Shown here: positions 7,116-30,299 of the stretch, in pieces
Layout: each line of letters opens with the position of its first letter
How positions within the stretch are numbered: the first letter of the stretch is position 1
Virus record (IMG/VR): IMGVR_UViG_3300009095_000049
Coordinates: 1-30,299 of that record
Direction: 5' to 3' (one strand)
DNA: 30,299 nucleotides
DNA from: a virus
Taxonomy: Duplodnaviria > Caudoviricetes
The notes under the pieces: generated by a model
Seen by the model: only the letters and a program-made list of their open reading frames with translations
Databases searched by the model: none
Told to the model about the DNA's origin: nothing
Translations under genes and position numbers: made by a program

Positions 7116-7510
7116 TCGGCGCCGAGATTATCGCCACGGTCGTGGCCGCGGCTGTCATCGGCGCGGGCGCATGGATGTTCCGCGTCTTCAAGCGCGGCCT
7201 GATCGCCTATCTGAATGCGCAGTTCACCCCCAACGGAGGGAACAGCGTCGCTGACCGTATCGACAGACTAGAGAAGTCGGTAAGCCTGCTTACCGAGCGA
7301 GCAAAGGAGACGGGTTGTCTGCCTGGCTGTCCGCGGCTGCACGCATACCAGCCTATGCCGATGGCGGCGCACTCACCGCAATGGACCCACGATGTCTATG
7401 GGTGGCGTCCCATCTCGGAGCCGAGTATTCCGCCCGTCTCACAGCCGAGTATTCCCATGCCTTCGTTCGTTCCCCCCACATCATCTATGACCCCCGAAAC
7501 GATGAGGTGA
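7112..7510 (+). CDS. Membrane protein, holin-like candidate
   Basis: TTG start overlapping the upstream stop. One N-terminal TM segment (IIATVVAAAVIGAGAWMF), then PNGGNSVADRIDRLE, a motif common in actinophage lysis-region membrane proteins. Confidence 0.55.
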   Translation: MIGAEIIATVVAAAVIGAGAWMFRVFKRGLIAYLNAQFTPNGGNSVADRIDRLEKSVSLLTERAKETGCLPGCPRLHAYQPMPMAAHSPQWTHDVYGWRPISEPSIPPVSQPSIPMPSFVPPTSSMTPETMR

Positions 7511-7882: not shown

Positions 7883-8480
7883 GACCAAGCTCGTCACGTC
7901 GATCGGGAAGAAGCTCGTCGCCCACTACGGGCGACCGAACAAGTTCATCACCTGGTGGTGTGAACCGCGCGGGCTCAAGGGCTCATGGCTGACGGCTCCG
8001 TGGTGCGCCATGTTCGCGAGCTACGTCTACCGCTCTGCCGGCCTGGCGAAGCAGGCAGGGCAATTCGCGTATTGCCCTTCGTGGGTGTCCTGGCTGAAGT
8101 CTAAGAAGCGTTGGGGGAGCAAGCCGAAGGTTGGCGCCCTGGTCTTCTACTCGTGGAAGGCGAACGGCGTCGCCGATCATGTCGGCATCGTGACCGCGGT
8201 CGGCGCGAGCACGATCAAGAGCCTCGAAGGCAACACCACGAAGAGCGGCGCCAAGAATTGGGTAGCCGTGCAGACGCGCCAGCGCGACAAGACGATCCTT
8301 GGCTACGGCTACGTTGACGACGAGAAGCCGGCACGTACCTATACCGTGCGCAAGGGTGACAACCTGTCCAAGATCGCCAAGCTCTACGGGACGACCTGGC
8401 AGAAGCTCTACGCCAAGAACAAGAGCGTGCTTGGAAGTAAGCCCAGCCTTATTAAGCCTGGTCAGGTGCTAGTCGTATAA
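7869..8480 (+). CDS. Endolysin: CHAP peptidase plus C-terminal LysM
   Basis: PWCAMFAS (catalytic Cys), DHVGIV (His), EGNT. LysM domain YTVRKGDNLSKIAKLYGTTWQKL...LIKPGQVL. ATG 7869 follows GAGGA. Confidence 0.9.
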   Translation: MAKSKTKLVTSIGKKLVAHYGRPNKFITWWCEPRGLKGSWLTAPWCAMFASYVYRSAGLAKQAGQFAYCPSWVSWLKSKKRWGSKPKVGALVFYSWKANGVADHVGIVTAVGASTIKSLEGNTTKSGAKNWVAVQTRQRDKTILGYGYVDDEKPARTYTVRKGDNLSKIAKLYGTTWQKLYAKNKSVLGSKPSLIKPGQVLVV

Positions 8481-10588: not shown

Positions 10589-10617
10589 GGCGGAGCCTTC
10601 GGGCTCCGCCCTTTTTC
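10589..10617 (+). terminator. Intrinsic terminator-like hairpin
   Basis: GGCGGAGCC-TTCG-GGCTCCGCC-CTTTTT: 9-bp stem, UUCG loop and U-tract. Confidence 0.65.
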
Positions 10618-10910
10618 GTGTCTATGGGCAGGCTCCGCCTGCCGTGACGAACGATCGATTCTTCCCTTACCTCCCTCTCGTCAAACCACGCGAAGCGTGG
10701 TTACTGACCAGTAGAAAAATCTTGACTTCAAGGTCTGGACATCCCGGACATAGCTTGCTTTCTCGCTGGTCACAGACGTAGCATCGATATCACTCGCTTC
10801 GGGGGAAGCATCTCAACCCTGACTGACGGTAACAAAACCGTTACGCAGGGTTACCGATGTCTCGTCGTGGGTAAAACCCTGGTAAATGCTCACATCGGGG
10901 GTTCCCGCCT

Positions 10911-16062: not shown

Positions 16063-16243
16063 CGAAGGCGTTCAGCGCTACATCGCGCTAAAGAAGGCTG
16101 TTCTCGCCAACATGCGACGGATTCAAAACGAGTTGGCGCGCATGGACGCCTTGACATCGGAAGGCCGAAGCTTCGCTCTTCGGCGGATTCAGGTCATCCT
16201 TGACGACCCGTTCGCATCCAATGGACCTACGGCCAGTCCTTGA
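16052..16243 (+). CDS. Hypothetical protein
   Basis: 63 aa, coiled-coil-like, fills the operon gap. Confidence 0.5.
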   Translation: MTSDEGVQRYIALKKAVLANMRRIQNELARMDALTSEGRSFALRRIQVILDDPFASNGPTASP

Positions 16244-16643
16244 CGCCTACGACGTTGAGTATCGGGGATCGGGCAACCATGTCATCAGGTGCCCTTTCCC
16301 CGATCATGACGAGCGTAACGCGAGCTTTAGCGTAGATCCCTCTAGGGGGATCTGGTTCTGTCACTCGTGCCCATCGGAGCCGCAAGGCGGCGGGGTGTTC
16401 GACTTCATCCAACGCATGGAGGGCTGTTCTCGTGAGGACGCTAGACGACGAGCGGTTGACCTGGTTGGAGGAGACGTGTCGCGACTACGAGATAGCTCTG
16501 ATGGAGACGGAGGCGGCAGCCTCCTACCTGGATGGGCGAGGCGTAAGCACGGCATCAAGGGACCGGTACAGGCTCGGCGTGGTGGTCGATCCTCCCGCGG
16601 AACATCGCAGCGTCGCCGGCAGGCTGGCTATCCCCACCCTTAA
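16221..16643 (+). CDS. DNA primase, CHC2 zinc-finger part
   Basis: CPFPDHDERNASFSV...WFCHSC...GGVFDFIQRMEG. Confidence 0.8.
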   Translation: MDLRPVLDAYDVEYRGSGNHVIRCPFPDHDERNASFSVDPSRGIWFCHSCPSEPQGGGVFDFIQRMEGCSREDARRRAVDLVGGDVSRLRDSSDGDGGGSLLPGWARRKHGIKGPVQARRGGRSSRGTSQRRRQAGYPHP

Positions 16644-17115
16644 GCGGGTGGGGGTGGTCGGCTTCAAGTTCCGATGCATCCGGGCCGAGTGCATGGGCAC
16701 CGGCGAGGACGACGAGCGTCATGAGGGTCACGGCAAGTACCAGACGTTCGAGCCACAGGCGCTCTACAACGTTGCCGCTCTCGACAACGACCAGGGCTAT
16801 ATAGCCCTGGCGGAGGGTGAGCTTGATGCGATCACTCTTGAGGGAGAGTGCGGCATTCCAGCCGTGGGGCTGGTGGGAGTCAATTCATGGCACTTGCATT
16901 ATTACGGGCTGCTGAAGGATTTTCCTCGCATCTACATTTTTGAGGATAAGGACCCTTCGGGGATTGGCGAGTCATTCGGCGAGTTCCTTGCCGGCAAATT
17001 CGACCAGGCCATTCGGGTACAGCTTCCCGTCGTGGAGGAAGGAAGGAAGTCGGATGTGAACCGTGTGTTTCGCGCCCGTGGGCGCGACTTCGTTCGCGGA
17101 CTGATTGGGCTGTGA
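16432..17115 (+). CDS. DNA primase, TOPRIM catalytic part
   Basis: YLDGRG, GRLAIP, KFR, AEGELDAI, EDKDPSG and KSDVN. Confidence 0.85.
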   Translation: MRTLDDERLTWLEETCRDYEIALMETEAAASYLDGRGVSTASRDRYRLGVVVDPPAEHRSVAGRLAIPTLKRVGVVGFKFRCIRAECMGTGEDDERHEGHGKYQTFEPQALYNVAALDNDQGYIALAEGELDAITLEGECGIPAVGLVGVNSWHLHYYGLLKDFPRIYIFEDKDPSGIGESFGEFLAGKFDQAIRVQLPVVEEGRKSDVNRVFRARGRDFVRGLIGL

Positions 17116-19919: not shown

Positions 19920-20768
19920 GTGACTGAGAAGACCGTCCTGATTGTGTCGGACATTCAAGCACCGCTCCACGACGGGGCGGTGCTCGACAACGTTCTAGCC
20001 TTCGCTAAAGACCTGAAACCCGATCGACTCGTGAATGTGGGCGATGATTGGGATGCCCATGAAGTAAGCCAATACAGCAGAGGCAGGGCCGGCGAGTACG
20101 CCGGCACATTGCAGGCTGGCCTTGATGTCGTCGCCTCCATCCATGCGCGCTTCCGCGAAGCGGTGGGCGACATCCCCTATGACCTGTCTCGCTCGAATCA
20201 TGGCGACAGGTTGCGGAAGTATCTCGCGCAGTACGCGCCGGCTCTGTCGAGCCTGCGCAGTCTCGATATCGAAGAGCTTGCCGGCTACAAGGCCGCGGGC
20301 ATCGCCTACCATTCGGAGCCTTTCGAGGTCGCCCCCGGATGGGTCGCCTGTCATGGCGACGAGGGGAGCCTTAGTCAGATCGCCGGCCGCACGGCCTCTC
20401 TACTCTCGGCGAAGTGGGGGGTGTCCGTCGTGTGCGGGCACACGCACCGGGCCGGCCTCGTGCCCACGTCGAGCGGCTTCGCCGGCCGCGTGACTTCAAC
20501 CCGCTGGGGGTTCGAGGTCGGGCATCTCATGGACGTGTCGCAGGCCACCTATCTCAAGGGCGGCTCGTGCGACTGGCAGCAAGCTTTCGGTCTGCTGCGT
20601 GTCCGCGGCGATCGTGTGCATCCGGAGTTGATCCCGATCAACGATGACGGGTCGTTCTGTGTAGATGGCCAGTGGTACCCACGAGCGCGGGAGCGCTCAA
20701 CGAAGTTCGAGCTTGCCGCCCGCGGCTACGTGGGCGTGACCCCGAATTGGTCGGGGCGTGCCGCATGA
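19920..20768 (+). CDS. Calcineurin-like metallophosphoesterase
   Basis: SDIQ, VGDDWD, SNHG, CHGD and GHTHR. Confidence 0.85.
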   Translation: MTEKTVLIVSDIQAPLHDGAVLDNVLAFAKDLKPDRLVNVGDDWDAHEVSQYSRGRAGEYAGTLQAGLDVVASIHARFREAVGDIPYDLSRSNHGDRLRKYLAQYAPALSSLRSLDIEELAGYKAAGIAYHSEPFEVAPGWVACHGDEGSLSQIAGRTASLLSAKWGVSVVCGHTHRAGLVPTSSGFAGRVTSTRWGFEVGHLMDVSQATYLKGGSCDWQQAFGLLRVRGDRVHPELIPINDDGSFCVDGQWYPRARERSTKFELAARGYVGVTPNWSGRAA

Positions 20769-21025
20769 GCATAGGGTCAGTCCTGCGAGAGATGATTGAG
20801 AGAAGCGACGACGTGAAGACTTCAGATATCACCGATGAGGCGTTTCTTGCCGTCGTCCACCAGGTGCGCGAACGCGAGCAGCGTTGGACGCACGTGGGCG
20901 ACGTGATGGAGGCGCTAGGGGCGCCTCGCAGGGTCGTCTTGTCAAAGGCTCGCAAGCTGATCGATCGCGGGTTGCTCGACGGGTGCGCCTGCGGTTGCAG
21001 GGGCGACTTCGAGGTGACCCCGTGA
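20765..21025 (+). CDS. Hypothetical protein
   Basis: ATGA overlap. C-terminal GLLDGCACGCRGDFE. Confidence 0.7.
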   Translation: MSIGSVLREMIERSDDVKTSDITDEAFLAVVHQVREREQRWTHVGDVMEALGAPRRVVLSKARKLIDRGLLDGCACGCRGDFEVTP

Positions 21026-21729
21026 GCGACGACGACCTGTTGACGTACGCCCGAACCATCGCCGGCGTGCTGTGGCGCCGATGGCCAACCATCGACCCCG
21101 ACGACATCGCGCAGGAAATCTGCCTCTACATCCTGTCCACGCCGAAGGTCCTGGAGGAGTGGCAGAACTTCCGGGAGGGCGACTTCACGGATGCCGAGGC
21201 AGAGAAGTACGCGGCCCGGAGAATGAGGATGATCGCCCGCCGCGCGGGCGCCCGGTACTGCCGGCGAGAGATCGCCGGGCAGCTCGGTTATAAGCCGGAA
21301 GACGAGGCTTTCTATTCGATCAAGCAATTGCAAGAGCTGGTCGAGCACTTCTATGCGCTGGGGATCACGGAGCGGCCTCCGGTCAGCCGCGGCGAGTCGA
21401 TCACTCGTTCGGTGTCCGACCCTTCCGCGGGTGGTGGCTGGCTCGTGTCGCTCCTGGACGTCGAGCGAGGGCTTCGGGAGCTGCCGCAGAAGTATCGGGC
21501 TCGCTTGAAGATGCGTTTCAAGGACCTTGGCGAGTACGACCTGAAGCAGATCGCTGCAATGGTCGGCAATCTGGCGGTCGCTCCCGGCAAGCGCCGGCGC
21601 ATCGAGAAGCATCTTGGAACGGATGAGAAGCAGATGGGGATGCGGGTCCATCGTGCCCTTCGCCGGCTACAAGACGTGCTCGGCGGCCCGACACCGTACG
21701 TGCGGGAAGACCTCGAACAGGCGGCATGA
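21022..21729 (+). CDS. RNA polymerase sigma-factor-like protein
   Basis: Region-2-like IDPDDIAQEICL and region-4-like LLDVERGLRELP...KQIAA...RVHRALRRLQDVLGG. GAGG SD before GTG 21022. Confidence 0.7.
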   Translation: MSDDDLLTYARTIAGVLWRRWPTIDPDDIAQEICLYILSTPKVLEEWQNFREGDFTDAEAEKYAARRMRMIARRAGARYCRREIAGQLGYKPEDEAFYSIKQLQELVEHFYALGITERPPVSRGESITRSVSDPSAGGGWLVSLLDVERGLRELPQKYRARLKMRFKDLGEYDLKQIAAMVGNLAVAPGKRRRIEKHLGTDEKQMGMRVHRALRRLQDVLGGPTPYVREDLEQAA

Positions 21730-21732
21730 CGA

Positions 21733-21768
21733 AACCCCTCCCCTCACCAGAGGGGAGGGGTTGCTTTT
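21733..21768. terminator. Bidirectional terminator between convergent arms
   Basis: AACCCCTCCCCTC-ACCA-GAGGGGAGGGGTT, a 13-bp perfect stem between convergent stops. Confidence 0.8.
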
Positions 21769-21772
21769 GGTG

Positions 21773-22087
21773 TCAGGCGCCGCGCGTCAGGAAGACATCG
21801 AGCCGATAGACAGGGATGTCCAGGGCGACGGCTGTCGCCATCTCGGCGCGAGCGCCGCGCGAGGTGTCCGATCCTGGCAGAAGGATCAGCGCGTCCGCCT
21901 GCGTGGCGATCCATTGAAGGCAATGACCGAAGGCGGGGCGGATGTCGTCGGTAGAGAACCCGTCGCCGGGGTCGGCAGGGTTCATCACCTCATGGCCGAG
22001 GTGGCGAAGGATGCCGGCCGCGGCGAAGAACGCGGGGAAGTTCATTTCTGGTCTGCCTCGCATCGGCCCGGCGATGTAGAGCTTCAC
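21773..22087 (-). CDS. DUF4406 / nucleoside 2-deoxyribosyltransferase-like protein
   Basis: LYIAGPMRG, NFPAF, VMNPA, ADALILLPG and SRGARAE. GTG start overlapping the upstream stop. Confidence 0.78.
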   Translation of the reverse strand: MKLYIAGPMRGRPEMNFPAFFAAAGILRHLGHEVMNPADPGDGFSTDDIRPAFGHCLQWIATQADALILLPGSDTSRGARAEMATAVALDIPVYRLDVFLTRGA

Positions 22088-22302
22088 TTCTTGACCTTCC
22101 CCCATCCGCCCTTTTTGAGGACTTTGTTTCTGAGTACGAGACAGACGAAGCCCCAAAGGAGCCATGCCGGCCAGGTGATGAGGAATTGCGCCAATGGCGC
22201 CCAATCCTGCTCGTGCGTGACGAAGAGGATGCCGGCCCATCCAATGGCGACGTAGGCGCCACAGATGATGTTGACGAGTTTTCGGGTGGTCTCGGCTTTC
22301 AT
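22084..22302 (-). CDS. Small membrane protein (2 TM)
   Basis: Two hydrophobic segments and a basic tail. Confidence 0.65.
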   Translation of the reverse strand: MKAETTRKLVNIICGAYVAIGWAGILFVTHEQDWAPLAQFLITWPAWLLWGFVCLVLRNKVLKKGGWGKVKK

Positions 22303-22790
22303 AGATAGAACCCCGGTTCCCGGCTGTCGCCTGGCTTGACGTAGGTGATCGGCATGCTCTGCCTGTTATGTCTGCCTTCGTACTCCGCGATCACAACGTC
22401 AGCGATGATGTCGAGCTGCGCTCGGCAGTCGCCGGCGCCTTCGCAGCATGGAGCCACCACGAACGCAGAGTTGGCGATCGTGATGCCGCCCACCCTTGGT
22501 TGGCTCGCCAGGAAGGAGTCGCATCCTTCGGCGGCCATCGGGAAGACCTTTTTGAGGTCCCTCAACGATTCGGCGATCTGACCGTGTGCGGCTTCCACGG
22601 TGTCGAGCGCTTCCGTGTGGTGGATCTTGATCGGGTCACGGTCGAGCCCCACCATGATGAGCGCGTGAAAGTGGTGCTTGTGGTCTCGCTCGTGCTCGGC
22701 TGCGGCCCGATACTCGGGATCGTGCGCCAGGCGCCACTGCTCGCATTTGTCGCATGGGCAGCCGATCGGGTGCTGTGAGATATCAGTCAT
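22299..22790 (-). CDS. Hypothetical protein
   Basis: ATGA overlaps at both ends. Contains HPIGCPCDKC. Confidence 0.7.
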   Translation of the reverse strand: MTDISQHPIGCPCDKCEQWRLAHDPEYRAAAEHERDHKHHFHALIMVGLDRDPIKIHHTEALDTVEAAHGQIAESLRDLKKVFPMAAEGCDSFLASQPRVGGITIANSAFVVAPCCEGAGDCRAQLDIIADVVIAEYEGRHNRQSMPITYVKPGDSREPGFYL

Positions 22791-23047
22791 GACGCGAGCG
22801 CCTTAGCTTTGGTTTCGGCGTGAATCATGATCCAAAGCCACTTCCAGCGCAGGCATGCGCGGCAGTCGCAGCCGACTTCGTGGCGACGGACGATTGACCA
22901 CAGGTCGCGCCGGCCGAGGCGCGAGGGGTCCTCTTGTACGATCATGAATCGTTCGGCCAACGCCCGATCGTATGGGCATGGGCATGTGCGCGGGTGCCCC
23001 GCGCGCTTGTCGCCTAGCTCGGCGATACTGAGGTATGGGAATAGCAT
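22787..23047 (-). CDS. Hypothetical Cys/His-rich protein
   Basis: GAAGGA SD plus GCTCACGCAATG start box. Contains HPRTCPC and HEVGCDCRAC. Confidence 0.7.
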   Translation of the reverse strand: MLFPYLSIAELGDKRAGHPRTCPCPYDRALAERFMIVQEDPSRLGRRDLWSIVRRHEVGCDCRACLRWKWLWIMIHAETKAKALAS

Positions 23048-23072
23048 TGCGTGAGCATTTCCTTCGTCGGGG

Positions 23073-23714
23073 TTATCCGAGATTGCGCCATCCCTGGCGC
23101 CGATAAAACTCCTCCCATGCTCGGAACATCATTTTCGTTAAGGGCTGCTCCGGGGGCGTCCCCATGAGGGTCGCCCATGCCCGCGTCTTGGCTACTCGTG
23201 CCGGCTGGTCGTCGTTACTCGCCGGCGCATGGGGCGCCCATTCTTCGGGCGTCCTTTCGGGCGCCTGGCGCGCCTCGTTGGCCTCGCGAACCTGCGGCCC
23301 GAAACCGAGATTAGAGGCGTCGGAAGGTTCGTCGGGTACTCGGGTACCCTCCGGCTCTGTTCGCGGCTCTACGCTCTGCCCCTTCTCTGAAATGGGGGCA
23401 TTCTGCGGTTCACTCTCGGGCTCGCTCGCGCTCTCCGCGGGTGGCGAGACAGGAACGTCAGGCACGGCCTTCAAATGACGCTCCCTCTTCGGGAGCGTCG
23501 CCAGGACCTTGCTCTTGCTGGCCGGCCTGGCGGCCCGAACGAACGGAGCCATCGCCTCGCGGAACGCGGTAGCGTTCTCGTCGGACAGGTCAATGACGAG
23601 CGCCTGGCCATCGAAGGCGAAGGCCATCTCTTCCAGCTCTTCGGGGAGATGCGTCTCCCCCGTCAGGTCGTCCCAATACTGGCGACCCTTGTACTTACGG
23701 CACCCCATAGCCAC
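23073..23714 (-). CDS. Lsr2-like protein with a divergent C-terminal domain
   Basis: DDLTGE...FAFDGQALVIDLSDENATAFREAMAPFVRAAR matches the Lsr2 dimerisation domain. A long P/E-rich linker leads to a C-terminal TRAWA..G without RGR. Confidence 0.75.
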   Translation of the reverse strand: MAMGCRKYKGRQYWDDLTGETHLPEELEEMAFAFDGQALVIDLSDENATAFREAMAPFVRAARPASKSKVLATLPKRERHLKAVPDVPVSPPAESASEPESEPQNAPISEKGQSVEPRTEPEGTRVPDEPSDASNLGFGPQVREANEARQAPERTPEEWAPHAPASNDDQPARVAKTRAWATLMGTPPEQPLTKMMFRAWEEFYRRQGWRNLG

Positions 23715-23793
23715 AACCTCATTGCGTGAGCATTCGCAGAGTGATCACTATATAGGGATCGGAAGATCCCTATGCGTGAGCATGCGCAGAGAG

Positions 23794-24015
23794 TCAGTCG
23801 ATCTCGCGCAGGGAGATAATACGCTTAGGCAGCCCTTCGCGGCGGCAGAACGCCCGAACTGCGCTCCATGGATACGCGACGCGCTGGCGGCCAGACCTGA
23901 CGACCGAGACTCCTTCGGGCCAGCCGGGTTTCTTCGTCCATCGGCGAACCGCCTCTTTGTTGACCTCTAGCCGTCTCGCGATCTCGGTAATCGTCAAAAG
24001 TTCGTCGTTCATCAT
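23794..24015 (-). CDS. Small HTH DNA-binding protein (excisionase/MerR-like)
   Basis: LLTITEIARRLEVNKEAVRRW...WP...YPWSAVRAF. GAGG SD. Confidence 0.7.
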   Translation of the reverse strand: MMNDELLTITEIARRLEVNKEAVRRWTKKPGWPEGVSVVRSGRQRVAYPWSAVRAFCRREGLPKRIISLREID

Positions 24016-24142
24016 GCCGCCTCGCATGTCTGCCTGGCTCGTGGCTCCACAGTCGCAGCAACGCCACCGCCAGAAGCGACAGAATGACGCACTGCAAAAG
24101 CAGGGTGGCCGCGAGCATGGTTTGAATTTCGGTGGAGACCAT
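23825..24142 (-). CDS. Putative membrane protein
   Basis: GAAAGGA SD plus GCTCACGCAATG box. N-terminal TM segment; the 3' part overlaps the HTH gene. Confidence 0.5.
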   Translation of the reverse strand: MVSTEIQTMLAATLLLQCVILSLLAVALLRLWSHEPGRHARRHDERRTFDDYRDRETARGQQRGGSPMDEETRLARRSLGRQVWPPARRVSMERSSGVLPPRRAA

Positions 24143-24228
24143 TGCGTGAGCGTTCCTTTCGGAGTGATCAACCGCCATCAACAGGCGGAAAGGCCGAGCG
24201 AGCCTTTCCGCCCGAAGAAGACGGCAGA

Positions 24229-24483
24229 TCACTCCCGCGTGCTCTCCTCCAAATGCACCCGGTACGCCTCCGCGAAAGCGAGGACGTAATTCAGATGCAT
24301 CTTGAGCGCATAGTGGAGAGCGTCAGCTAGCAGGCCAGTATAGAGGTCCATCGTGGACGTACCGAGCTGGTCACCCGCGACGCCCTTCATTCTCTTGTAC
24401 TCGGCAAGCAGCTCGCCGAAGCGGTCGGTGCCTGCCTCTACCTTCTCCGTGACCGAGAGGTCACGGGATGTGGTTATTCCCAT
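24229..24483 (-). CDS. Hypothetical protein
   Basis: AAGGA SD plus box. Contains LLADALHYA. Confidence 0.7.
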   Translation of the reverse strand: MGITTSRDLSVTEKVEAGTDRFGELLAEYKRMKGVAGDQLGTSTMDLYTGLLADALHYALKMHLNYVLAFAEAYRVHLEESTRE

Positions 24484-24682
24484 TGCGTGAGCAGCTTCCT
24501 TGGAGAGATGATCACATAGTGGCGGATCGACTGGTCACGGCGTGTCGCACCTGCGACACATGGCCCAATGTCCGCCCCGCCCGTCACACCAGGCGTACAG
24601 CTTGTGGCCACAGACCAGCACAGCCGGGCGGTCTTGCGAGGCTCGCGATCCCAGAAGAGCGGCCGGCCTTCGTCCTTCGTGG

Positions 24683-24928
24683 TCACGGCTTGAGCGTCGG
24701 GGGGAGCGTCGTCCCGTCCGCGGCGATGACCTCGTAACCGCACTCGCGAAGTACGCGCGTCACGGCCTCGTGAGAGATGCGGGGGCGCCCGCCGATGGTA
24801 CGCATGGGCGTGCCGAACCGACCGGCCTTGACGTGACGGGAAGCGCTCTTCGGGTTGATGTTGAAGATTCGACCGATGTCCGCGGTCGAGAGGGGATCAG
24901 GGTAGTGCCTCAGATCGATGGTTGGCAT
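24683..24928 (-). CDS. BldC-like / MerR-type HTH DNA-binding protein
   Basis: LSTADIGRIFNINPKSASRHVKAGRF..MRTIGGRPRI parallels the BldC pattern (PKT..RW.KAG.L...RT.GG.RR). Confidence 0.65.
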   Translation of the reverse strand: MPTIDLRHYPDPLSTADIGRIFNINPKSASRHVKAGRFGTPMRTIGGRPRISHEAVTRVLRECGYEVIAADGTTLPPTLKP

Positions 24929-25027
24929 TGGTACCTCTTGCGTGAGCAGTGGTGCGGGTGAGCGGCCCGCGATGTGTGATCGCTCTGAACGGCGCCCCCG
25001 TTACGTCGGGGGCGCCAGACACAACGA

Positions 25028-25198
25028 TCAATCGAGGTCTATGCCTAGCCTCTCGACTAGCTCTTCGGTCATGGAGACTTCTCCCGTGCCGAACGCATCC
25101 GGATCATCAGCCAGCGTGGCGGCGATGGCTTCGCCAACGCACGCACCACAAGTGAGGTACTGCGGTTCCTCGTGTAGGTCACAGCCCATGATCGTCAC
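25028..25198 (-). CDS. Small acidic hypothetical protein (56 aa, not in the ORF track)
   Basis: GTGA overlap. Reads MTIMGCDLHEEPQYLTCGAC...LGIDLD*. Confidence 0.55.
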   Translation of the reverse strand: MTIMGCDLHEEPQYLTCGACVGEAIAATLADDPDAFGTGEVSMTEELVERLGIDLD

Positions 25199-25290
25199 TT
25201 CCCGGTGATGTACGCGAGAATGACGATGACCAGGAGCAGCGCCAGCACCACGATAACGGCACTGATGATCATGTTCGCTTCCGTGCTCAT
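25195..25290 (-). CDS. 31-aa single-TM peptide
   Basis: MSTEANMIISAVIVVLALLLVIVILAYITGK*. ATGA overlap. Confidence 0.55.
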   Translation of the reverse strand: MSTEANMIISAVIVVLALLLVIVILAYITGK

Positions 25291-25478
25291 AGCCATCCCG
25301 CCACTTCGGCGAGCTGCCGCAGGTCGAAGGCGAAGAAGAAGGCCGCGAGCGGGATGGCTACAGCGAAGAGAAGCCGCAACCTCATGGCCTGGTTCGCCTT
25401 GATGGCCTTGATCAGGAGATACGCGGCGCCTGCCGTGGCGGCGCCCGACATGAGTGCGTTGGCGACGACCCAGATCAC
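25287..25478 (-). CDS. Small membrane protein (2 TM)
   Basis: Two hydrophobic stretches. GTGA overlap. Confidence 0.6.
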   Translation of the reverse strand: MIWVVANALMSGAATAGAAYLLIKAIKANQAMRLRLLFAVAIPLAAFFFAFDLRQLAEVAGWL

Positions 25479-26038
25479 GGCAGCCTCTTGACACTGGCGA
25501 CGACCGCGCGAAGCTTAACGCCTTCGGGCACGGCCATACTGAAGTCTTCCGGGATGCTGTACTTCGTGCCGTGAAGCTCGAACGTGTTCCGAACGATCTC
25601 CTGGCTACCGGCCCGAACGCGATAGGAGACCTCGTAACTGTCGTCGCTACGCGCGTCCATGTCGAGAAGCGTCACCTCCACTTCGTAGGTGACGTTGCAG
25701 CCCGCCGAACCGAAGCACTTGCGACGCTTCTCGATCACGTCAAGACGCAAATCGTTCTTCGTGAGCCGGCGTGCAGGCGAAGGGGAAGGGGCCGGGGAAG
25801 GTGTGCGAGTCTTCTTCGGCACGGAAGCGGAGACGGCAGTGTCGGCGCCTCGCTCACCGGCCTTCTCAACTGCGGCGCCCATAGCGAACCCGGTCGGCCC
25901 GGCAAGGATGGCGCCTCCGAGGAGACCGAGCATGATGAGACGGAAGCTACGGCCGGCCGCGGCCGGCGACGGGGGCGGCGTGGGCATGGGCGGCGGCGGG
26001 GGTGGCTGATAGCGATGCCTGCCGGGCATGTCGTTCAT
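25475..26038 (-). CDS. Membrane-anchored proline-rich protein
   Basis: Poly-Pro N-terminus, one TM segment, a PS linker, and a beta-rich domain with KCFGSAGCNVTY. Confidence 0.7.
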   Translation of the reverse strand: MNDMPGRHRYQPPPPPPMPTPPPSPAAAGRSFRLIMLGLLGGAILAGPTGFAMGAAVEKAGERGADTAVSASVPKKTRTPSPAPSPSPARRLTKNDLRLDVIEKRRKCFGSAGCNVTYEVEVTLLDMDARSDDSYEVSYRVRAGSQEIVRNTFELHGTKYSIPEDFSMAVPEGVKLRAVVASVKRLP

Positions 26039-26607
26039 GACGAGTGTCCTTTGCGTGAGCGTATTTCGCGAATGATGAGATCCAGCATGTAGGGCGATAG
26101 GGCTCGCCCTGTTTGCAGCTCGTAAGCGGCAATGACCGTAGCACGGTCAATGACTCGCGTCGGCCCTTTCCGGTGTTCGTCAATGAGCTGCGTGAGCAGA
26201 GCCCGATCATGTTTTCTCGGATTAGTGCTCGGGCTGTCCTCTCCTCTCTTGCGTGCGCTGATCCTGGCCAGAATATAGTTCAGTACACCGGGCGAGATAT
26301 GTAGGCCGGTGATCTCCTGGTATCGGCGCCGAACCGCATAGCGATCGACGTACTGAACGCCGGCACGATGCTGCATCGAAAGCCTTTCGATCAGCTCATA
26401 ATCGTGGCGTACCTGCTTCGTCCATTTCTTGCCAGGGTTGCGCCGAAGCTGCAAAAGAATGCTTGCAAGGCTGCTATCCGGCAAGGGGATTCCGGTCTGC
26501 TTCTCGTACGCCTTGCGAAGCGCCACCCGATCGACGGTACCCCTGGCAGGGGTACGCATCTTTTGGGCTAGACGCTCCACAAGCGCGTAATCATGCTGCG
26601 GTTTCAC
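26035..26607 (-). CDS. Basic protein with three tandem ~60-aa repeats
   Basis: Three copies of HD..L...L......G...(V/I)DR......Y...TG........L..I. GGAAGG SD. Confidence 0.75.
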   Translation of the reverse strand: MKPQHDYALVERLAQKMRTPARGTVDRVALRKAYEKQTGIPLPDSSLASILLQLRRNPGKKWTKQVRHDYELIERLSMQHRAGVQYVDRYAVRRRYQEITGLHISPGVLNYILARISARKRGEDSPSTNPRKHDRALLTQLIDEHRKGPTRVIDRATVIAAYELQTGRALSPYMLDLIIREIRSRKGHSS

Positions 26608-26728
26608 TGTTCCTTCCCTTTGACTGATCGTGAGCGCGGAGCGTTCACGTCTGGCAGTGAATCTGCGATTCCCTGCTGATCACTCCATTGCCGGGCCGGC
26701 GCCCCGAAGCCGGCCGTTGATGCAACGG

Positions 26729-27082
26729 TCAGGCGGTAAGGGTCTCCCAATCCATCCGATACATGGCGATCGTGGGAAGCCCTTCCTTGCGTGCCTCTTC
26801 GATGCACGATTCGGCGCCATCCACGAAGAACCGCATGGCGACCTCGGCGCCATGCTTGTCGTCCCTGGCGTACTTGTAGTCCGGGTGGCTGATAGGGATG
26901 GGCCTGTTCGGGTTCTGCTTCAAGACCAGGAACATGGTGGTGTCGAGAAGCCAAAGGCTTTGCTGGTCCTGCCGATCCTTGAGACTGTGAATCTCTTCGA
27001 AGTACGTGCCGGCGATCGTGCGACGGATACGAACGCGCATGGTGTTGCCGTCTGACAGCTTGTGAGGCTTGGATAGAGCCAT
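26729..27082 (-). CDS. Hypothetical protein
   Basis: Box followed by GGAGG SD and ATG 27082. An alternative in-frame ATG lies at 27097. Confidence 0.7.
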   Translation of the reverse strand: MALSKPHKLSDGNTMRVRIRRTIAGTYFEEIHSLKDRQDQQSLWLLDTTMFLVLKQNPNRPIPISHPDYKYARDDKHGAEVAMRFFVDGAESCIEEARKEGLPTIAMYRMDWETLTA

Positions 27083-27119
27083 TGGAAGAACCTCCATTGC
27101 GTGAGCCTGAAACCGGAGC

Positions 27120-27175
27120 TGGTCTCATTAATGGGCCGGCGGCGCCCCGTCGCCGCTTGCCCAATGACAAGATCA
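27120..27175 (-). ncRNA. Conserved intergenic hairpin element, copy A
   Basis: TGATCTTGTCATTGGGC-AA-GCGGCG-ACGGGG-CGCCGC-CG-GCCCATTAATGAGACCA. Confidence 0.7.
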
Positions 27176-27496
27176 GACGAGACTCGCTGCGTAACGGTTG
27201 TCACCCTTACATGCGCGACAGATGCAGCCGTCCCGGTGAATCTCGTACGGATGGAACAGTTGTTCGCGCTCACCAGGAACGCTCTCCCATTCGAATCGCA
27301 CTAACACCATGTCGCCGATGGTGTCGAAGACCCTACCCGCGTAGGCGTACTCGGATTGAACCGGCGTGGTCGAACTGGGAGAGCTGGGAATCTGGTAGAA
27401 CGGGCATGCCCGAACCGATCCGATGCCAGCTTGCGTAAGTTCGTACGCCTTTCGGTCGAAGAAGGTCTTTGGCATGTTCTGGTTTCGAAGTTCCAT
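27173..27496 (-). CDS. Hypothetical protein
   Basis: AGAAAGG plus GCTCACGCGATG. C-terminal HRDGCICRAC. Confidence 0.65.
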   Translation of the reverse strand: MELRNQNMPKTFFDRKAYELTQAGIGSVRACPFYQIPSSPSSTTPVQSEYAYAGRVFDTIGDMVLVRFEWESVPGEREQLFHPYEIHRDGCICRACKGDNRYAASLV

Positions 27497-27530
27497 CGCG
27501 TGAGCCTTTCTGTGGCGGGAATCTGAGCAT

Positions 27531-27590
27531 TGATTCCACTCCAGAGCCGGCGCACCTCGCGAGAGGTGCGCATGCCCTAGGGCAGGATCA
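27531..27590 (-). ncRNA. Conserved intergenic hairpin element, copy B
   Basis: TGATCCTGCCCTAGGGC-AT-GCGCACCTC-TCGC-GAGGTGCGC-CG-GCTCTGGAGTGGAATCA. Confidence 0.7.
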
Positions 27591-27776
27591 CACGTAACCG
27601 GCGATCTCCAGGTCATGAACGAGGTCCGCCATTTCGCTGCGCATGCGCACGGCGTCGAACTTGTTCACCGCGAACAAGTCGCCGGCTCGCTGGTAGGCGG
27701 ACATCATGCGCGCGTGGAGCGCGTCCGCTTCATCGATCGTGAGGACATTGAAGAGCGGGTTGCGGAGGTAAACCAT
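27588..27776 (-). CDS. Hypothetical protein
   Basis: Box then GGAAGG SD then ATG (MVYLRNPL...). Confidence 0.65.
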   Translation of the reverse strand: MVYLRNPLFNVLTIDEADALHARMMSAYQRAGDLFAVNKFDAVRMRSEMADLVHDLEIAGYV

Positions 27777-27867
27777 GGTGATCCTTCCCATTGCGTGAGC
27801 GTGAGCATTGTCCGGAGAATCTCCACACTTCCCCTCCCCGATAGGGGAAGCATGGGCTATCGCCGGC

Positions 27868-28170
27868 CTAGGCGCACTGAAGGCAGTTGCAGCCGACCAA
27901 CGGTGCAAGGTGTTCGCACTTACCATTCTCTTCGGAAACGGAACACTCACGACCGTCGTTAGCCTCGCAGATAGGCTCATAGCCGTGATAGATGTCCGTG
28001 AGTCCCGTGCAGTGCTGTGCGTCGCCGCCATCGCTGGCCACGTACTTTTCGATCCCTTCCCGGTAACCGGGAACGCGCTGCCACGTACCCCCGCACGTAA
28101 GGCAAGAGTCTTGCTGCGGTTCGTCGGTGCTCTGGAACGTGTGGCCGAGCGACGATTCGATGACGAGCAT
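27868..28170 (-). CDS. Cys/His-rich hypothetical protein
   Basis: Box plus AAAGGA SD. Multiple Cys residues including CLTC and GCNCLQC. Confidence 0.65.
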   Translation of the reverse strand: MLVIESSLGHTFQSTDEPQQDSCLTCGGTWQRVPGYREGIEKYVASDGGDAQHCTGLTDIYHGYEPICEANDGRECSVSEENGKCEHLAPLVGCNCLQCA

Positions 28171-28216
28171 GGGGAACCATCCTTTGCGTGAGCTGTGATG
28201 TCTGAAGCCTGAGCAT

Positions 28217-28271
28217 TGACTTCATTAGTGGGCCGGCGCGCGAACGCGCGCTTGCCCTGCTGACAAAGTCA
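28217..28271 (-). ncRNA. Conserved intergenic hairpin element, copy C
   Basis: TGACTTTGTCAGCAGGGC-AA-GCGCGC-GTTC-GCGCGC-CG-GCCCACTAATGAAGTCA. Confidence 0.7.
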
Positions 28272-28514
28272 GATGCCCTCGATACCGAGCGTCTCCGCGA
28301 TGCCAGAGAACAGGCTCTCTGCGCGGTCGCGCATGTCCTCGGGGATGTCGTCAAGAGAGACGAATCCGGCCGGCGTGGAGAGAATCCAGATCAGGGCTTC
28401 CATGTCCTCATGGTTGAGAACCATAGGGTAGCTCTCAGTGGAGGCGTTGTTCGCGTCGATCATGGCGCGAACCATTTCGGGAGTACCCATCGTGAACGAA
28501 GCGGAGTAAGCCAT
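28269..28514 (-). CDS. Acidic hypothetical protein
   Basis: AGAAAGG plus GCTCACGCAATG (MAYSASF...). Confidence 0.7.
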   Translation of the reverse strand: MAYSASFTMGTPEMVRAMIDANNASTESYPMVLNHEDMEALIWILSTPAGFVSLDDIPEDMRDRAESLFSGIAETLGIEGI

Positions 28515-28550
28515 TGCGTGAGCCTTTCTGGACTGGAGATCGGTGAGCAT

Positions 28551-28606
28551 CGATCTCACTAGGCAGCCGGCGCGCCCCCGTGCGCGCTTGCCACCTGGCA
28601 AGATCA
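28551..28606 (-). ncRNA. Conserved intergenic hairpin element, copy D
   Basis: TGATCTTGCCAGGTGGC-AA-GCGCGC-ACGGGG-GCGCGC-CG-GCTGCCTAGTGAGATCG. Confidence 0.7.
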
Positions 28607-29017
28607 AATCCATCCATAGCCACGGTCGGGACGCTCAGGAGACCGTGCGAACGAGGCACGCGGAGCGTGCAGCACTGGCGAACCTTCGGGCGTCGTGAAC
28701 GTGTCCGCGCGATCGGCGGACGGGTTGTAGGTGGCTTTGGTGAGCTGGTCTGTGGCCACGGGCTGATCGATGCTTTCGACCACACCCACGACCCATGCGT
28801 GAACGGTGCGCTTACCGAGTCTGTGGCAACGCGCGCGGCCGGCCGCACTCACCTTGAAATCGACGTTGGTCAAGGTAATCGTGTTCACGTTCGCGATCAC
28901 GCGGCCGGCGTGTTCGCCACCGATAGCCGTGATTGACCAGAGGTGCGTGTGAAGGTTGAAGTGCACCTTCACCTTGACCCCGATCAGCGTTTGGGGGTCA
29001 ACTCGATTCGTTGGCAT
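28604..29017 (-). CDS. Conserved phage hypothetical protein
   Basis: AAAGGAG SD. VHFNLH..WSI...GRVI...FKVSAAGR.R.....KRTVHAWVVG resembles a widespread phage family of unknown function. Confidence 0.75.
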   Translation of the reverse strand: MPTNRVDPQTLIGVKVKVHFNLHTHLWSITAIGGEHAGRVIANVNTITLTNVDFKVSAAGRARCHRLGKRTVHAWVVGVVESIDQPVATDQLTKATYNPSADRADTFTTPEGSPVLHAPRASFARSPERPDRGYGWI

Positions 29018-29041
29018 GATCTTCTCCTTTCCTCGCTTAGC

Positions 29042-29095
29042 TGGTCTCACTAGGAAGCCGGCCGGCGTGAGCCGGCTTGCCTCCTGGCAAGAGCA
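29042..29095 (-). ncRNA. Conserved intergenic hairpin element, copy E
   Basis: TGCTCTTGCCAGGAGGC-AA-GCCGGC-TCAC-GCCGGC-CG-GCTTCCTAGTGAGACCA. Confidence 0.7.
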
Positions 29096-29110
29096 GAGAT
29101 GCGAGGCGGA

Positions 29111-29248
29111 CTACTTGTTGCGACGCATCTTGGCCAGCGTGCGAATGTGCATCCCAATCGCGGTCAGACCGGTACCCACGTAGGCCACGAAGACGCCGGC
29201 GATAAAGAGAGCGGCGACGTCGCCCGCGATGAGAAGAACGTCCTTCAT
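29111..29248 (-). CDS. 45-aa membrane peptide (not in the ORF track), first gene of the leftward arm
   Basis: GAAAGGA SD. Reads MKDVLLIAGDVAALFIAGVFVAYVGTGLTAIGMHIRTLAKMRRNK*. Confidence 0.65.
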   Translation of the reverse strand: MKDVLLIAGDVAALFIAGVFVAYVGTGLTAIGMHIRTLAKMRRNK

Positions 29249-29286
29249 GTCTTTGTTCCTTTCAGCTTGTTTTTGTGTATGCATCC

Positions 29287-29316
29287 ATCATGGCGACATG
29301 TAGCCATGCTCGTCAA
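29287..29316 (-). promoter_or_regulatory. Putative sigma70-type early promoter with a palindromic operator
   Basis: Minus strand TTGACG-18nt-CATGAT. A 20-bp near-perfect palindrome CATGGCGACATGTAGCCATG lies at 29289-29308. Confidence 0.6.
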
Positions 29317-30299
29317 GGGGTCTGGCCAAGATTTTTTGGATCAGCCGTCGTGCCAGGTCAACCATCATGATCGTTGGCAAAGGGGTTCCCGTAGCGCTAG
29401 CGAAGGGGTTCTCGCGGCAGCCATACGGCGCCGAGCCGGCGCCAGAGGGACCAAGATCAACTAGCCTCAGTGTGGAGGCAGGATCGAACGGGGGCGCATA
29501 CCAAGCGGTTGCTTGGTATGGACTGTCAACGTCCGTTGACGCTAGAACGCGAGGATTGCTCGTGTTTTGGTACCCGATGGAGCCGCAATCATGGCTGTGA
29601 CCTGCACAAATGCGATGGGATGCGATCCAACACCCTAAGATCCACAGCTCGCGAGCGTGCCGGCGTCGCCGGCCGCGCCGCTGGTCTGTGGCATCGTTGC
29701 AGGTGGGAGCCCTAGGGGCGCCTCGCGTCCCCTGGTTCGACCCCACCCTTTTAAATCCGGCGACGGCCCTACGCCCTACTATCCACCCCCGAATCTGTGT
29801 AAAATTTACTAGAACCTTGTTCTGTTTCGTGGTAACAGTTTGATAAAGCGCCCCAGCTCGAAGGGGGTATATCAAATCGTTACCATCTTTGCGCGTTACC
29901 GGGTTCGTTTCCACATGCATTCTTATATATAGAGGGGTTTTAAAGAAAGGGGGGAGGCTTCGGCGTTCCCGCCTCCCCCGAACGAAGGGCGGCCTCGACG
30001 GGCCGCCAGAACGAACGAAGGCGTAAGGGCTCTAAAGCCCGTCGCCCTTACTAGATAGAAAGGGCTCCGCTTTTCGGCGGAGCCCAGAGAAGGGGAAGGC
30101 AAACCGGAGGTTTGCACACCAACACCCACGATAGTCGGACCTTCGCCTTACCTTCCCCTTCGTCTGGCGCGCTCTTGGCGCGCCCTATCTATCTGGCATC
30201 GTCCGCTTGATTGCTCGGACGATGCCCTTTCTCTACGCGCACGCGCGTAGAAGTTCGGTTAACCGTCTCGGGTAATAGGTCCATTCGAGAGCGCGGCCA

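Follow-up and report, generated by a model that had tools for sequence, protein, structure and literature searches.

Hairpins repeated at stop codons in the early region of an actinophage are probable RNase III-type processing sites with a predicted self-capping downstream product

Five related hairpins, referred to here as class I, lie on the minus strand between the early genes of an uncultured phage, and our analysis indicates that they probably act as T7-like RNase III processing sites, with a downstream product that is predicted by folding to cap itself. The window, i.e., the whole 30,299-nt stretch of DNA analyzed, is a temperate actinophage related to Streptomyces Beephvirinae.

A sequence-only reading of the window had described the five elements, and most of that description was reproduced by our pair ladder. 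The elements are present on the minus strand at the positions given (Table 1), with a 17-position lower stem in A to E (1 extra base in C) and with U7·G, G8·U, and C10·A in all 5 copies. The base-pair swaps reported at positions 4, 5, 6, 9, and 11 were likewise recovered, position 9 being C-G in B, D, and E and U-A in A and C; further lower-stem mismatches are found in A (3, 12), B (5), C (13), and E (3). The 2x2 internal loop AW/CG occurs in 5 of 5 window copies but is not a family-wide feature, as 3 copies of another phage, G003, have a paired upper stem there. Overall, the class I stem is irregular and comprises 21 to 26 stacked positions. A coincidence of the hairpin start with the TGA of the upstream open reading frame (ORF) was claimed for 4 of 5 copies and holds for A to D, and the absence of a U-tract is borne out by a U-tract terminator scan, which placed none of the 5 class I hairpins among its 8 terminator-like sites.

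Table 1. Coordinates of hairpins, predicted cap partners, and neighboring early-region features in the window
Feature	Position	Strand	Remarks
Class I hairpin A	27120..27175	-	Starts at TGA stop of upstream ORF
Class I hairpin B	27531..27590	-	Starts at TGA stop of upstream ORF
Class I hairpin C (1 extra base)	28217..28271	-	Starts at TGA stop of upstream ORF
Class I hairpin D	28551..28606	-	Starts at TGA stop of upstream ORF
Class I hairpin E	29042..29095	-	15 nt past TAG stop; GCTCACGC across top; without cap partner
Cap partner of A	27108..27114	-	Predicted to pair with 27127-27121, 7 bp
Cap partner of B	27518..27523	-	Predicted to pair with 27537-27532, 6 bp
Cap partner of C	28203..28209	-	Predicted to pair with 28224-28218, 7 bp
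Cap partner of D	28536..28542	-	Predicted to pair with 28557-28551, 7 bp
Candidate sigma-70-type early promoter (TTGACG, 18 nt, CATGAT)	29287..29316	-	Upstream of first early ORF; putative function
Early ORF, 137 aa, mycobacteriophage L5 gp82 family	28604..29017	-	PF25735, E 5e-27
Start-associated motif GCTCACGC	28516..28523	-	Between SD and ATG of 81-aa ORF (28269-28514)
Start-associated motif	28186..28193	-	Just 5' of SD of 100-aa ORF (27868-28170)
Two overlapping start-associated motifs	27793..27806	-	Before 62-aa ORF (27588-27776)
Start-associated motif	27498..27505	-	Between SD and ATG of 107-aa ORF (27173-27496)
Start-associated motif	27099..27106	-	Before 122-aa ORF (26729-27097)
Class II hairpin	27808..27870	-	Starts at TAG stop; central mismatch loop with C·A, tandem U·G/G·U
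Class III hairpin	26677..26731	-	Starts at TGA stop
Long imperfect hairpin, not class I	24161..24235	-	Over stop of 84-aa ORF, then start-associated motif; z -8.1

Folded as RNA, the trimmed copies reached z-scores of -4.3 to -5.5, and none of 200 shuffles equaled any copy. A structural descriptor, built from the same 5 window copies, returned 6 matches on the minus strand (the 5 hairpins and 1 in a late gene) and none on the plus strand, compared to a mean of 0.6 matches in 20 Markov controls. The earlier argument that the wobbles pair only on the minus strand proved weaker than proposed, since the plus strand turns C·A into G·U. Furthermore, 3 of 5 window copies fold better as RNA on the plus strand, and folding-energy asymmetry was therefore dropped as an argument for the sense strand. 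Support for the latter comes from the orientation of the element in all 5 genomes and from the other lower-stem positions, at which the pair ladder gives 20 G·U versus 7 A·C oppositions.

The 5 genomes include 4 other uncultured phages, which contributed 11 further class I copies (n = 16). All 16 are located on the sense strand of early genes, at or shortly past stop codons; in g4a, g2b, and g2d the foot is the same, and the start lies a few to 15 nt past a separate TAG stop. In an alignment based on sequence alone, which included 15 of the 16 copies, 92% of cells were paired, a value reached by 0 of 500 shuffles, while slid partners in the same alignment gave 33% to 48%. Two-sided changes were found in 15 of 20 pairs. 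G8·U is invariant across the aligned copies and C10·A is near-fixed, while neighboring pairs swap. This covariation supports the earlier suggestion that structure is under selection. It should be noted that both invariance and covariation are overstated to some degree, since the search patterns and model contained the invariant letters and the copies are related.

A metagenome pattern scan for the element yielded 88 loci, 2 of which were the window itself, with a significant model match in 1 of the 86 others (L024, the same phage as G001). In a second, viral pattern scan (17 loci, 16 of them scanned), the real ones were G001 and G003 only. Model R1 gave nothing significant in FlowerPower, Immanuel3, G005, G006, G007, phiC31, and CRB1, and blastn of the early arm, copy D, and 1 G003 copy against GenBank phages returned no meaningful match. 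The five copies had no match in Rfam at E values up to 10, and the 6 weak Rfam matches in the window are all located outside them. The proposed novelty thus stands as far as Rfam is concerned and is qualified by the fact that the layout is partly in print for cluster M mycobacteriophages, as the accessible text of one report indicates (PMC7953290). No published description of the class I element was found in a search that covered the subscription literature thinly.

A second pairing, overlooked by the sequence-only reading, supports a processing function for the class I hairpin: the 3' arm also pairs with a segment just downstream, which we call the cap partner and which is present in 4 of the 5 window copies (A to D). 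The summed duplex energy was -134.7, compared to -73.5 +/- 7.3 for shuffled downstream sequence, with -100.2 as the best of 2000 shuffles. Individually, 13 of 16 copies were significant against shuffles (p<0.05), a level not reached by g1A and g4a, while E has no cap partner. Moreover, copies pair better with their own downstream segment (-8.4) than with the segments of other copies (-6.5), and in 11 of 16 copies the cap helix begins at the partner of position 8 or 7. When a cut was modeled at the U of G8·U, bases 2 to 5 of the product were paired at a level of at least 0.99 in A to D. According to these models, cap pairing would form a 6- to 7-bp hairpin whose first base is the U of the G·U pair or its neighbor, with the ribosome-binding site (RBS) remaining free; the RBS and the start-associated motif lie outside both folds.

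For the processing reading, we envisage one long early transcript starting from a single promoter candidate. This candidate is the sole promoter-like site in 20000-30299, where about 2 would be expected by chance, and similar -35/-10 boxes are found at the same place in G001, G002, and G004. The 3' arm would be cleaved close to the G·U/C·A patch by a nuclease specific for double strands, probably RNase III of the host, and the 5' end so created would fall on the U of G8·U or the next G, or immediately ahead of these (e.g., 28558/28557 in D). On the upstream product, the retained upper stem would protect the 3' end from PNPase. The downstream piece is predicted to form a short hairpin that begins with its first base, and the pairing of its 5' end would protect it from RNase J. 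The repeated junctions may, as a side effect, mark sites at which early genes are exchanged between strains.

RNase III substrates consist of about two helical turns of irregular duplex with at least 11 bp to one side of the cut, and loops can restrict the enzyme to one-strand cleavage that leaves 3' hairpins (PMC1540722, PMC3867540). The 21 to 26 stacked positions of the class I stem agree with this length. From what is accessible of the respective report, the RNase III of Streptomyces coelicolor favors duplexes rich in G-C, with cleavage at an internal loop (PMC10126417). In Escherichia coli, the box preferences are A-U at D/D' and U·G in the distal box, and no class I register fitted a matrix derived from double cuts in this species in vivo. 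The best register (C1 between positions 9 and 10) had a mean of 6.2; random G+C-rich stems gave 9.7, true sites would be expected to reach 13.2, and D/D' in class I is not A-U. These are E. coli rules, under which 4 of 5 T7 early hairpins also scored only -4.2 to 1.6. The cut site is not uniquely placed, since the cap starts above the mismatch, and not below it, in two cultured phages, Izel and FlowerPower.

The closest known counterparts are the early RNase III sites of T7 (R1.1 and its neighbors), single-strand cuts at which mature the early mRNA (PMC8708148). In both systems, the small early genes of a podovirus are separated by long irregular stems with G·U pairs, which lie downstream of host-type promoters and close to the next RBS on its 5' side, and an upstream product would retain a 3' hairpin (PMC8708148, PMC1540722). 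The two share no sequence similarity, and the class I host is an actinobacterium in which cleavage is a prediction. Furthermore, the T7 stems, as folded here, have an asymmetric internal loop beneath a 9- to 11-bp upper stem; class I differs in its single mismatches and 2x2 loop, in the inclusion of the stop codon, and in a second, downstream partner. A comparison by description with S. coelicolor rpsO-pnp shows a similar intergenic hairpin of a polycistronic mRNA, cut at an internal loop by the GC-preferring RNase III; there, in contrast, both sides of a 4/4 loop are cut and messages are destabilized, according to the accessible part of the report (PMC10126417).

A similar layout is also found in cultured actinophages. 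In the cluster M mycobacteriophages, stem-loops are located upstream of the conserved repeats CR3/CR4 between many right-arm genes, and single genes have been inserted together with a repeat, as far as the accessible text describes (PMC7953290). Izel, by its size and gene content apparently a cluster M phage, shows this order of hairpin and repeat between genes together with a cap partner. We folded 8 Izel and 3 FlowerPower fragments, chosen by motif, and in both early arms found imperfect hairpins anchored at stop codons, with a G·U that recurs next to a purine mismatch and with the same type of downstream partner. The layout is the same as in class I, whereas the sequences differ: Izel represents another sequence family, in which model R1 reaches only E 0.014, and that on the antisense strand, with sense-strand matches at 0.2-1.4, and a pattern search of Izel gave no matches.

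Additional hairpins overlooked by the sequence-only reading are located in the same early region. The class II hairpin, with counterparts in G001, G002, and G004, has a z-score of only -2.0. Class III has well-conserved counterparts in G001, G002, G004, G006, and G007; its window copy is no better than shuffles (z -0.14), compared to -3.2 in G007 and -4.0 in G006.

Among the three options raised by the sequence-only reading, RNA processing is best supported, by the cap pairing, by hammerhead ribozymes (see below), and by the layout in unrelated actinophages; the attC-like option is poorly supported. Translation control is weakly disfavored by folding models, because RBS exposure is nearly equal between folds in 4 of 5 copies (full/ribosome-opened/cut: E 0.64/0.68/0.75, D 0.56/0.63/0.63, C 0.52/0.46/0.46, A 0.48/0.43/0.43 with the start off by 3 nt; the fifth is B with 0.33/0.67/0.66).

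A rather unlikely alternative is a two-state stability barrier without a dedicated cut, in which the lower stem is melted by a ribosome that has reached the stop codon and the cap forms; the resulting pair of short hairpins would hold back exonucleases from either end, 3' and 5', after unspecific decay events, like a REP-type stabilizer. In 4 of 5 copies, the stop codon is part of the stem, and keeping the stop region unpaired in the folding model gives the upper hairpin plus the cap in A to D. The lack of a clear cut site in the E. coli matrix fits as well, with the low scores of 4 of 5 T7 hairpins to be kept in mind. However, the barrier leaves the fixed G8·U and near-fixed C10·A amid swapping neighbors unexplained, and E, g4a, g2b, and g2d have the same foot yet start past a separate TAG. 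In addition, the hammerheads that occupy the same slot are cutters.

We regard as improbable that the hairpins are U-less terminators or pause sites in phiC31-type "terminator-promoter units", with GCTCACGC(A) as a phage promoter or repressor site that restarts each gene. Such units have a precedent in an actinophage early region: Ingham, Hunter and Smith (1995) reportedly described phiC31 early-region terminators without poly-U tails, and phiC31, like the window, has U-less hairpins between early genes that are followed by a conserved motif. GCTCACGC(A) is moreover polar and start-associated, with 17 of 19 octamers oriented with local transcription. In being asymmetric, transcription-oriented, and located in translation-start regions, it resembles the start-associated sequences of clusters K and EF and the cluster A stoperators, as defined in the accessible parts of PMC7302621 and PMC4351075, a likeness that concerns the companion motif and not the hairpin. 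Domain and relative searches identified no repressor for this motif in the phage; the 190-aa ORF 26035-26607 was considered and rejected as a repressor, having no relative, family, or usable look-alike. Against termination, ordinary U-tract terminators are used elsewhere in this phage (21733-21762, 30085-30062, and about 10590-10618), and mycobacterial RNA polymerase passes U-less hairpins in vitro, according to the accessible text of PMC3993855. The best model match in phiC31 has an E value of 2.4 and its gap hairpins are mostly near-perfect, while fixed mismatches and a second partner are not needed for termination.

The hammerheads mentioned above were found in G003 as two Hammerhead_II matches (61 and 53 bits, gathering score 37), the only ones to reach the gathering score when six related loci were searched against Rfam. 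Each lies between a stop codon and the start-associated motif, i.e., in the slot of the three class I hairpins of that phage, and this swap suggests protein-dependent and protein-free routes to the same product architecture. The shared slot could also indicate that class I is self-cutting, or cut or bound by a phage protein (as a self-cleaving RNA, a phage endonuclease target, or a put-like antitermination signal), as could the lack of a known family for most early ORFs and a short GCTCA motif displayed in hairpin loops of G004; we hold this to be as improbable as termination. The specific version, a small self-cleaving RNA of an unfamiliar class (or phage-enzyme target) that is interchangeable with hammerheads, has both products hairpin-protected, and is switched by the ribosome on the stop codon, appears more improbable still. 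Class I matches no ribozyme family in Rfam and has few invariant unpaired bases. Furthermore, phages that differ in their gene sets and hosts have this layout in common, an observation in favor of a host factor.

Unlikely, and given very little credence, are attC-like or REP-like folded single-stranded DNA sites for site-specific gene-cassette exchange. Strains in 2 of 4 sequencing runs, from different studies, lack or replace genes between junctions (28599 to 29102/29110, 27176 to 27494, and 27770 to 28512), and genes follow different orders in the window, G001, and G002. Integron attC sites have a fixed crossover point and always move with their own cassette; here, there is no fixed crossover, the hairpin goes with the downstream or the upstream gene depending on the swap, and some joints lie at the start motif. 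Folded as DNA, the copies give weak structures without strand preference (z -1.7 to -3.6), and cap pairing would have no role. The integrase matched only generic PF00589 and the PHROG integrase, and its search in species genomes found only distant Acidobacteria recombinases. A Y1_Tnp HUH transposase (REP/RAYT) was found in 0 of 5 records, one of them complete, in a search whose control was positive in 6 of 14 genomes.

The RNase III-type reading is open to experiment in cultured phages that have the same layout, with Izel on Mycobacterium smegmatis and FlowerPower-type phages on Streptomyces, and short cut-and-cap parts could serve expression in Streptomyces. If the reading is true, class I would provide natural covarying substrates for the recognition rules of actinobacterial RNase III, as well as a function for the stem-loops beside start-associated repeats that the accessible literature describes in cluster M phages without naming one. 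Actinophages would thus punctuate their early message with sites that cut and cap.

Reexamination of the class I hairpins (copies A-E), the minus-strand elements between the early genes, reproduced all five coordinates, the lower stem with its tandem U7·G/G8·U, the C10·A mismatch, the compensatory swaps and the overlap with stop codons. As RNA, each copy folds better than 200 of 200 shuffles. The sequence-only reading also held that the wobbles pair only on the sense strand; folding energy gives no preference for that strand, and 3 of the 5 copies fold better on the opposite strand. No ladders like class I were found at plus-strand genes of the window, where the best score over 20 stops was 20, versus 27-30 for A, B, and D. 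The suggested Rfam scan returned no match for the five copies, while a covariance model built from them, likewise suggested, identified 11 further members of class I, distributed over four uncultured phages (G001, 3; G002, 4; G003, 3; G004, 1), all on the sense strand and at stop codons or just after; one extra match in G001 belongs to another hairpin class. The window capsid is shared with G001 (99%) and G002 (85%), and no match to it was found in G003 and G004, both incomplete records.

The 2x2 AW/CG loop is present in the five window copies as described but is not a family invariant, since the G003 copies keep the lower stem and have fully paired upper stems; their start motif also differs from that of the window. 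Of the 16 copies, 15 were aligned with MAFFT (g2c, with a 2-nt bulge, was excluded); in this alignment, 92% of cells are paired, two-sided changes occur at 15 of 20 pairs, G2-C and G8·U do not vary, and C10·A is found in 15 of all 16 copies (14 by pair ladder, g2c by inspection; absent from g2d), these counts being biased upward by search patterns that held invariant letters and by kinship of the copies. Class I is a real sequence family, for which we found no description in the literature.

The five-copy description had overlooked a second pairing: in most copies, the 3' arm has another partner a few bases downstream, which covaries with it and forms a second hairpin, the cap (see table). For copy E, a downstream partner was sought and none was found. 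Summed over 16 copies, cap duplex energy is -134.7 versus -73.5 +/- 7.3 with downstream sequence shuffled, and the pairing reaches p<0.05 individually in 13 copies (exceptions: E, g1A, and g4a). In 11 of 16 copies, the cap helix begins with the base that pairs with stem position 8 or 7; cap helix and lower stem are mutually exclusive. A cut in the 3' arm near the G·U would be predicted to give a downstream RNA with a paired 5' end and an upstream RNA retaining the upper stem. PNPase and RNase J have roles at paired RNA ends. Since RBS exposure is nearly equal in both folds in 4 of 5 window copies, the modeled folds point to end protection more than to translational gating.

Under the E. coli in vivo RNase III matrix (PMC6212723, Table S4), applied here to elements with an actinobacterial host, the best class I register places cuts around positions 8-10, near the cap start, with D/D' positions that are not A-U. 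By this matrix class I scores 6.2 versus 9.7 for random G+C-rich stems, and 4 of 5 T7 early hairpins score worse, so that the matrix speaks neither for nor against RNase III. The position of R1.1 follows PMC8708148, and the other T7 early sites go by their usual names. S. coelicolor RNase III prefers G-C duplexes and cleaves at an internal loop (PMC10126417). We consider class I to be probably a host RNase III-type cut-and-cap site with putative cleavage. It would most likely work like the T7 sites, with predicted cleavage and an added self-cap.

That class I is instead a passive two-state barrier appears unlikely. Terminators without poly-U tails were reportedly described in the phiC31 early region by Ingham in 1995. 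For class I, a U-less terminator is rather improbable, as ordinary U-tract terminators exist elsewhere in the window phage and mycobacterial RNA polymerase fails to stop at U-less hairpins in vitro (PMC3993855). We give a self-cleaving or phage-factor site an equally small chance. Genes are lost or replaced between hairpin junctions in contigs from 2 of 4 sequencing runs, and gene order is reshuffled among the window, G001, and G002. The terms attC, REP, and put elements are used in their usual definitions. An attC-like site is very improbable, since hairpin linkage is mixed (some swaps carry the downstream gene with the hairpin, others the upstream gene), DNA folding of the copies is weak and strand-neutral, and no HUH transposase was found in five phage records, one of them complete; we regard the swaps as a by-product of having repeated junctions at which ordinary exchange occurs.

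Cut-and-cap aside, the junctions hold further elements. Class II and III hairpins, overlooked in the sequence-only reading, occupy other early-gene junctions, and class IV occurs in relatives only. Class III, also found in G006 and G007, has a sequence well conserved in at least six phage records, two competing pairing registers, one resembling bulge-helix-bulge, and commonly a 3' arm ATG-GAG-TGA. In most early genes of the window, the polar motif GCTCACGC(A) lies in the region where translation starts; it also occurs at the integrase and exonuclease starts, and 17 of 19 window copies follow local transcription. Polar and start-associated, it resembles stoperators/SAS; no binding protein for it was identified. 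A tandem near-repeat (~50 nt period) upstream of the Lsr2-like gene has copies that each end in the start motif. Second hairpins with GCTCA in their loops lie downstream of long hairpins in G004. In the G003 early operon, two type II hammerhead ribozymes scoring over the Rfam gathering threshold each lie after a stop codon and ahead of the start motif ACCCACACAAG, a slot held by class I hairpins at other junctions of this phage; because hammerheads replace class I there, we infer a cutting slot.

The record, linear and about 71% complete (G+C 60.7%), has a capsid protein ~50-55% identical to those of Streptomyces Beephvirinae, e.g., FlowerPower and Immanuel3. Its genes for a tyrosine integrase, Lsr2, and a homologue of L5 gp82 make a temperate actinophage the simplest reading. 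Sixteen relatives of the integrase were found in uncultured contigs, the largest of which measures about 47-48 kb. The right arm of the record, where the hairpins lie, carries small leftward ORFs without known role downstream of a single promoter candidate. Non-coding blocks upstream of this promoter, kept in relatives and containing an inverted repeat, may be a small RNA, an origin, or a signal for packaging. One ORF with three internal repeats, each starting HDY/HDR, possibly encodes a DNA-binding protein; its start resembles that of an ORF in G004, and a search for its family and relatives found none. The DNA primase spans a pair of overlapping ORFs that are read in different frames, an arrangement also annotated in Immanuel3.

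Features of the early arm and related loci (window coordinates unless a locus is named)
Feature	Position	Strand	Detail
Class I copy A			3' arm TGAGACC / downstream partner GGTTTCA
Class I copy B			3' arm GGAATC / downstream partner GATTCC
Class I copy C			3' arm TGAAGTC / downstream partner GGCTTCA
Class I copy D			3' arm GAGATCG / downstream partner CGATCTC
Class II hairpin	27870-27808	minus	
Class III hairpin	26731-26677	minus	
Class III hairpin	L149, L150 5001-5057		
Class III hairpin	L002 ~7011-7070, 7351-7403, 8086-8168		
Promoter candidate	29316-29287	minus	sigma-70-type; heads right-arm early ORFs
Conserved non-coding blocks	~29370-29530, 29760-29890	minus	
Inverted repeat	near 29520-29495		
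Start motif, 19 sites	mainly 23056-29072	minus	also 10161 minus, 10913 plus
Tandem near-repeat	23731, 23781	minus	
ORF with internal repeats	26035-26607	minus	
DNA primase	16200-17115	plus	
Type II hammerheads, G003	L003 7475-7541, 9221-9287		
Second hairpins, G004	L117 ~1310-1345, 1590-1620, 2245-2280		
Stop-anchored hairpins with invariant G·U, G-C, A·G, G·U patch	Izel L152 2465-9404; FlowerPower L005 ~39600-41200		

Among cultured actinophages, the early arm of Izel carries imperfect hairpins anchored at stops and followed by a start motif, and those of FlowerPower and Immanuel3 carry similar, less regular ones. A G·U next to a purine mismatch recurs in all three, and a covariance-model search found no sequence homology of these hairpins to class I. 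The hairpin-plus-start-motif layout is already known, since stem-loops upstream of repeats CR3/CR4 of cluster M are in print, with no function named in the accessible part of PMC7953290. A cap like that of class I is predicted in 8 Izel and 3 FlowerPower fragments selected by motif, and the hairpins of these two phages with cap partners offer ready-made test cases in cultured phages.
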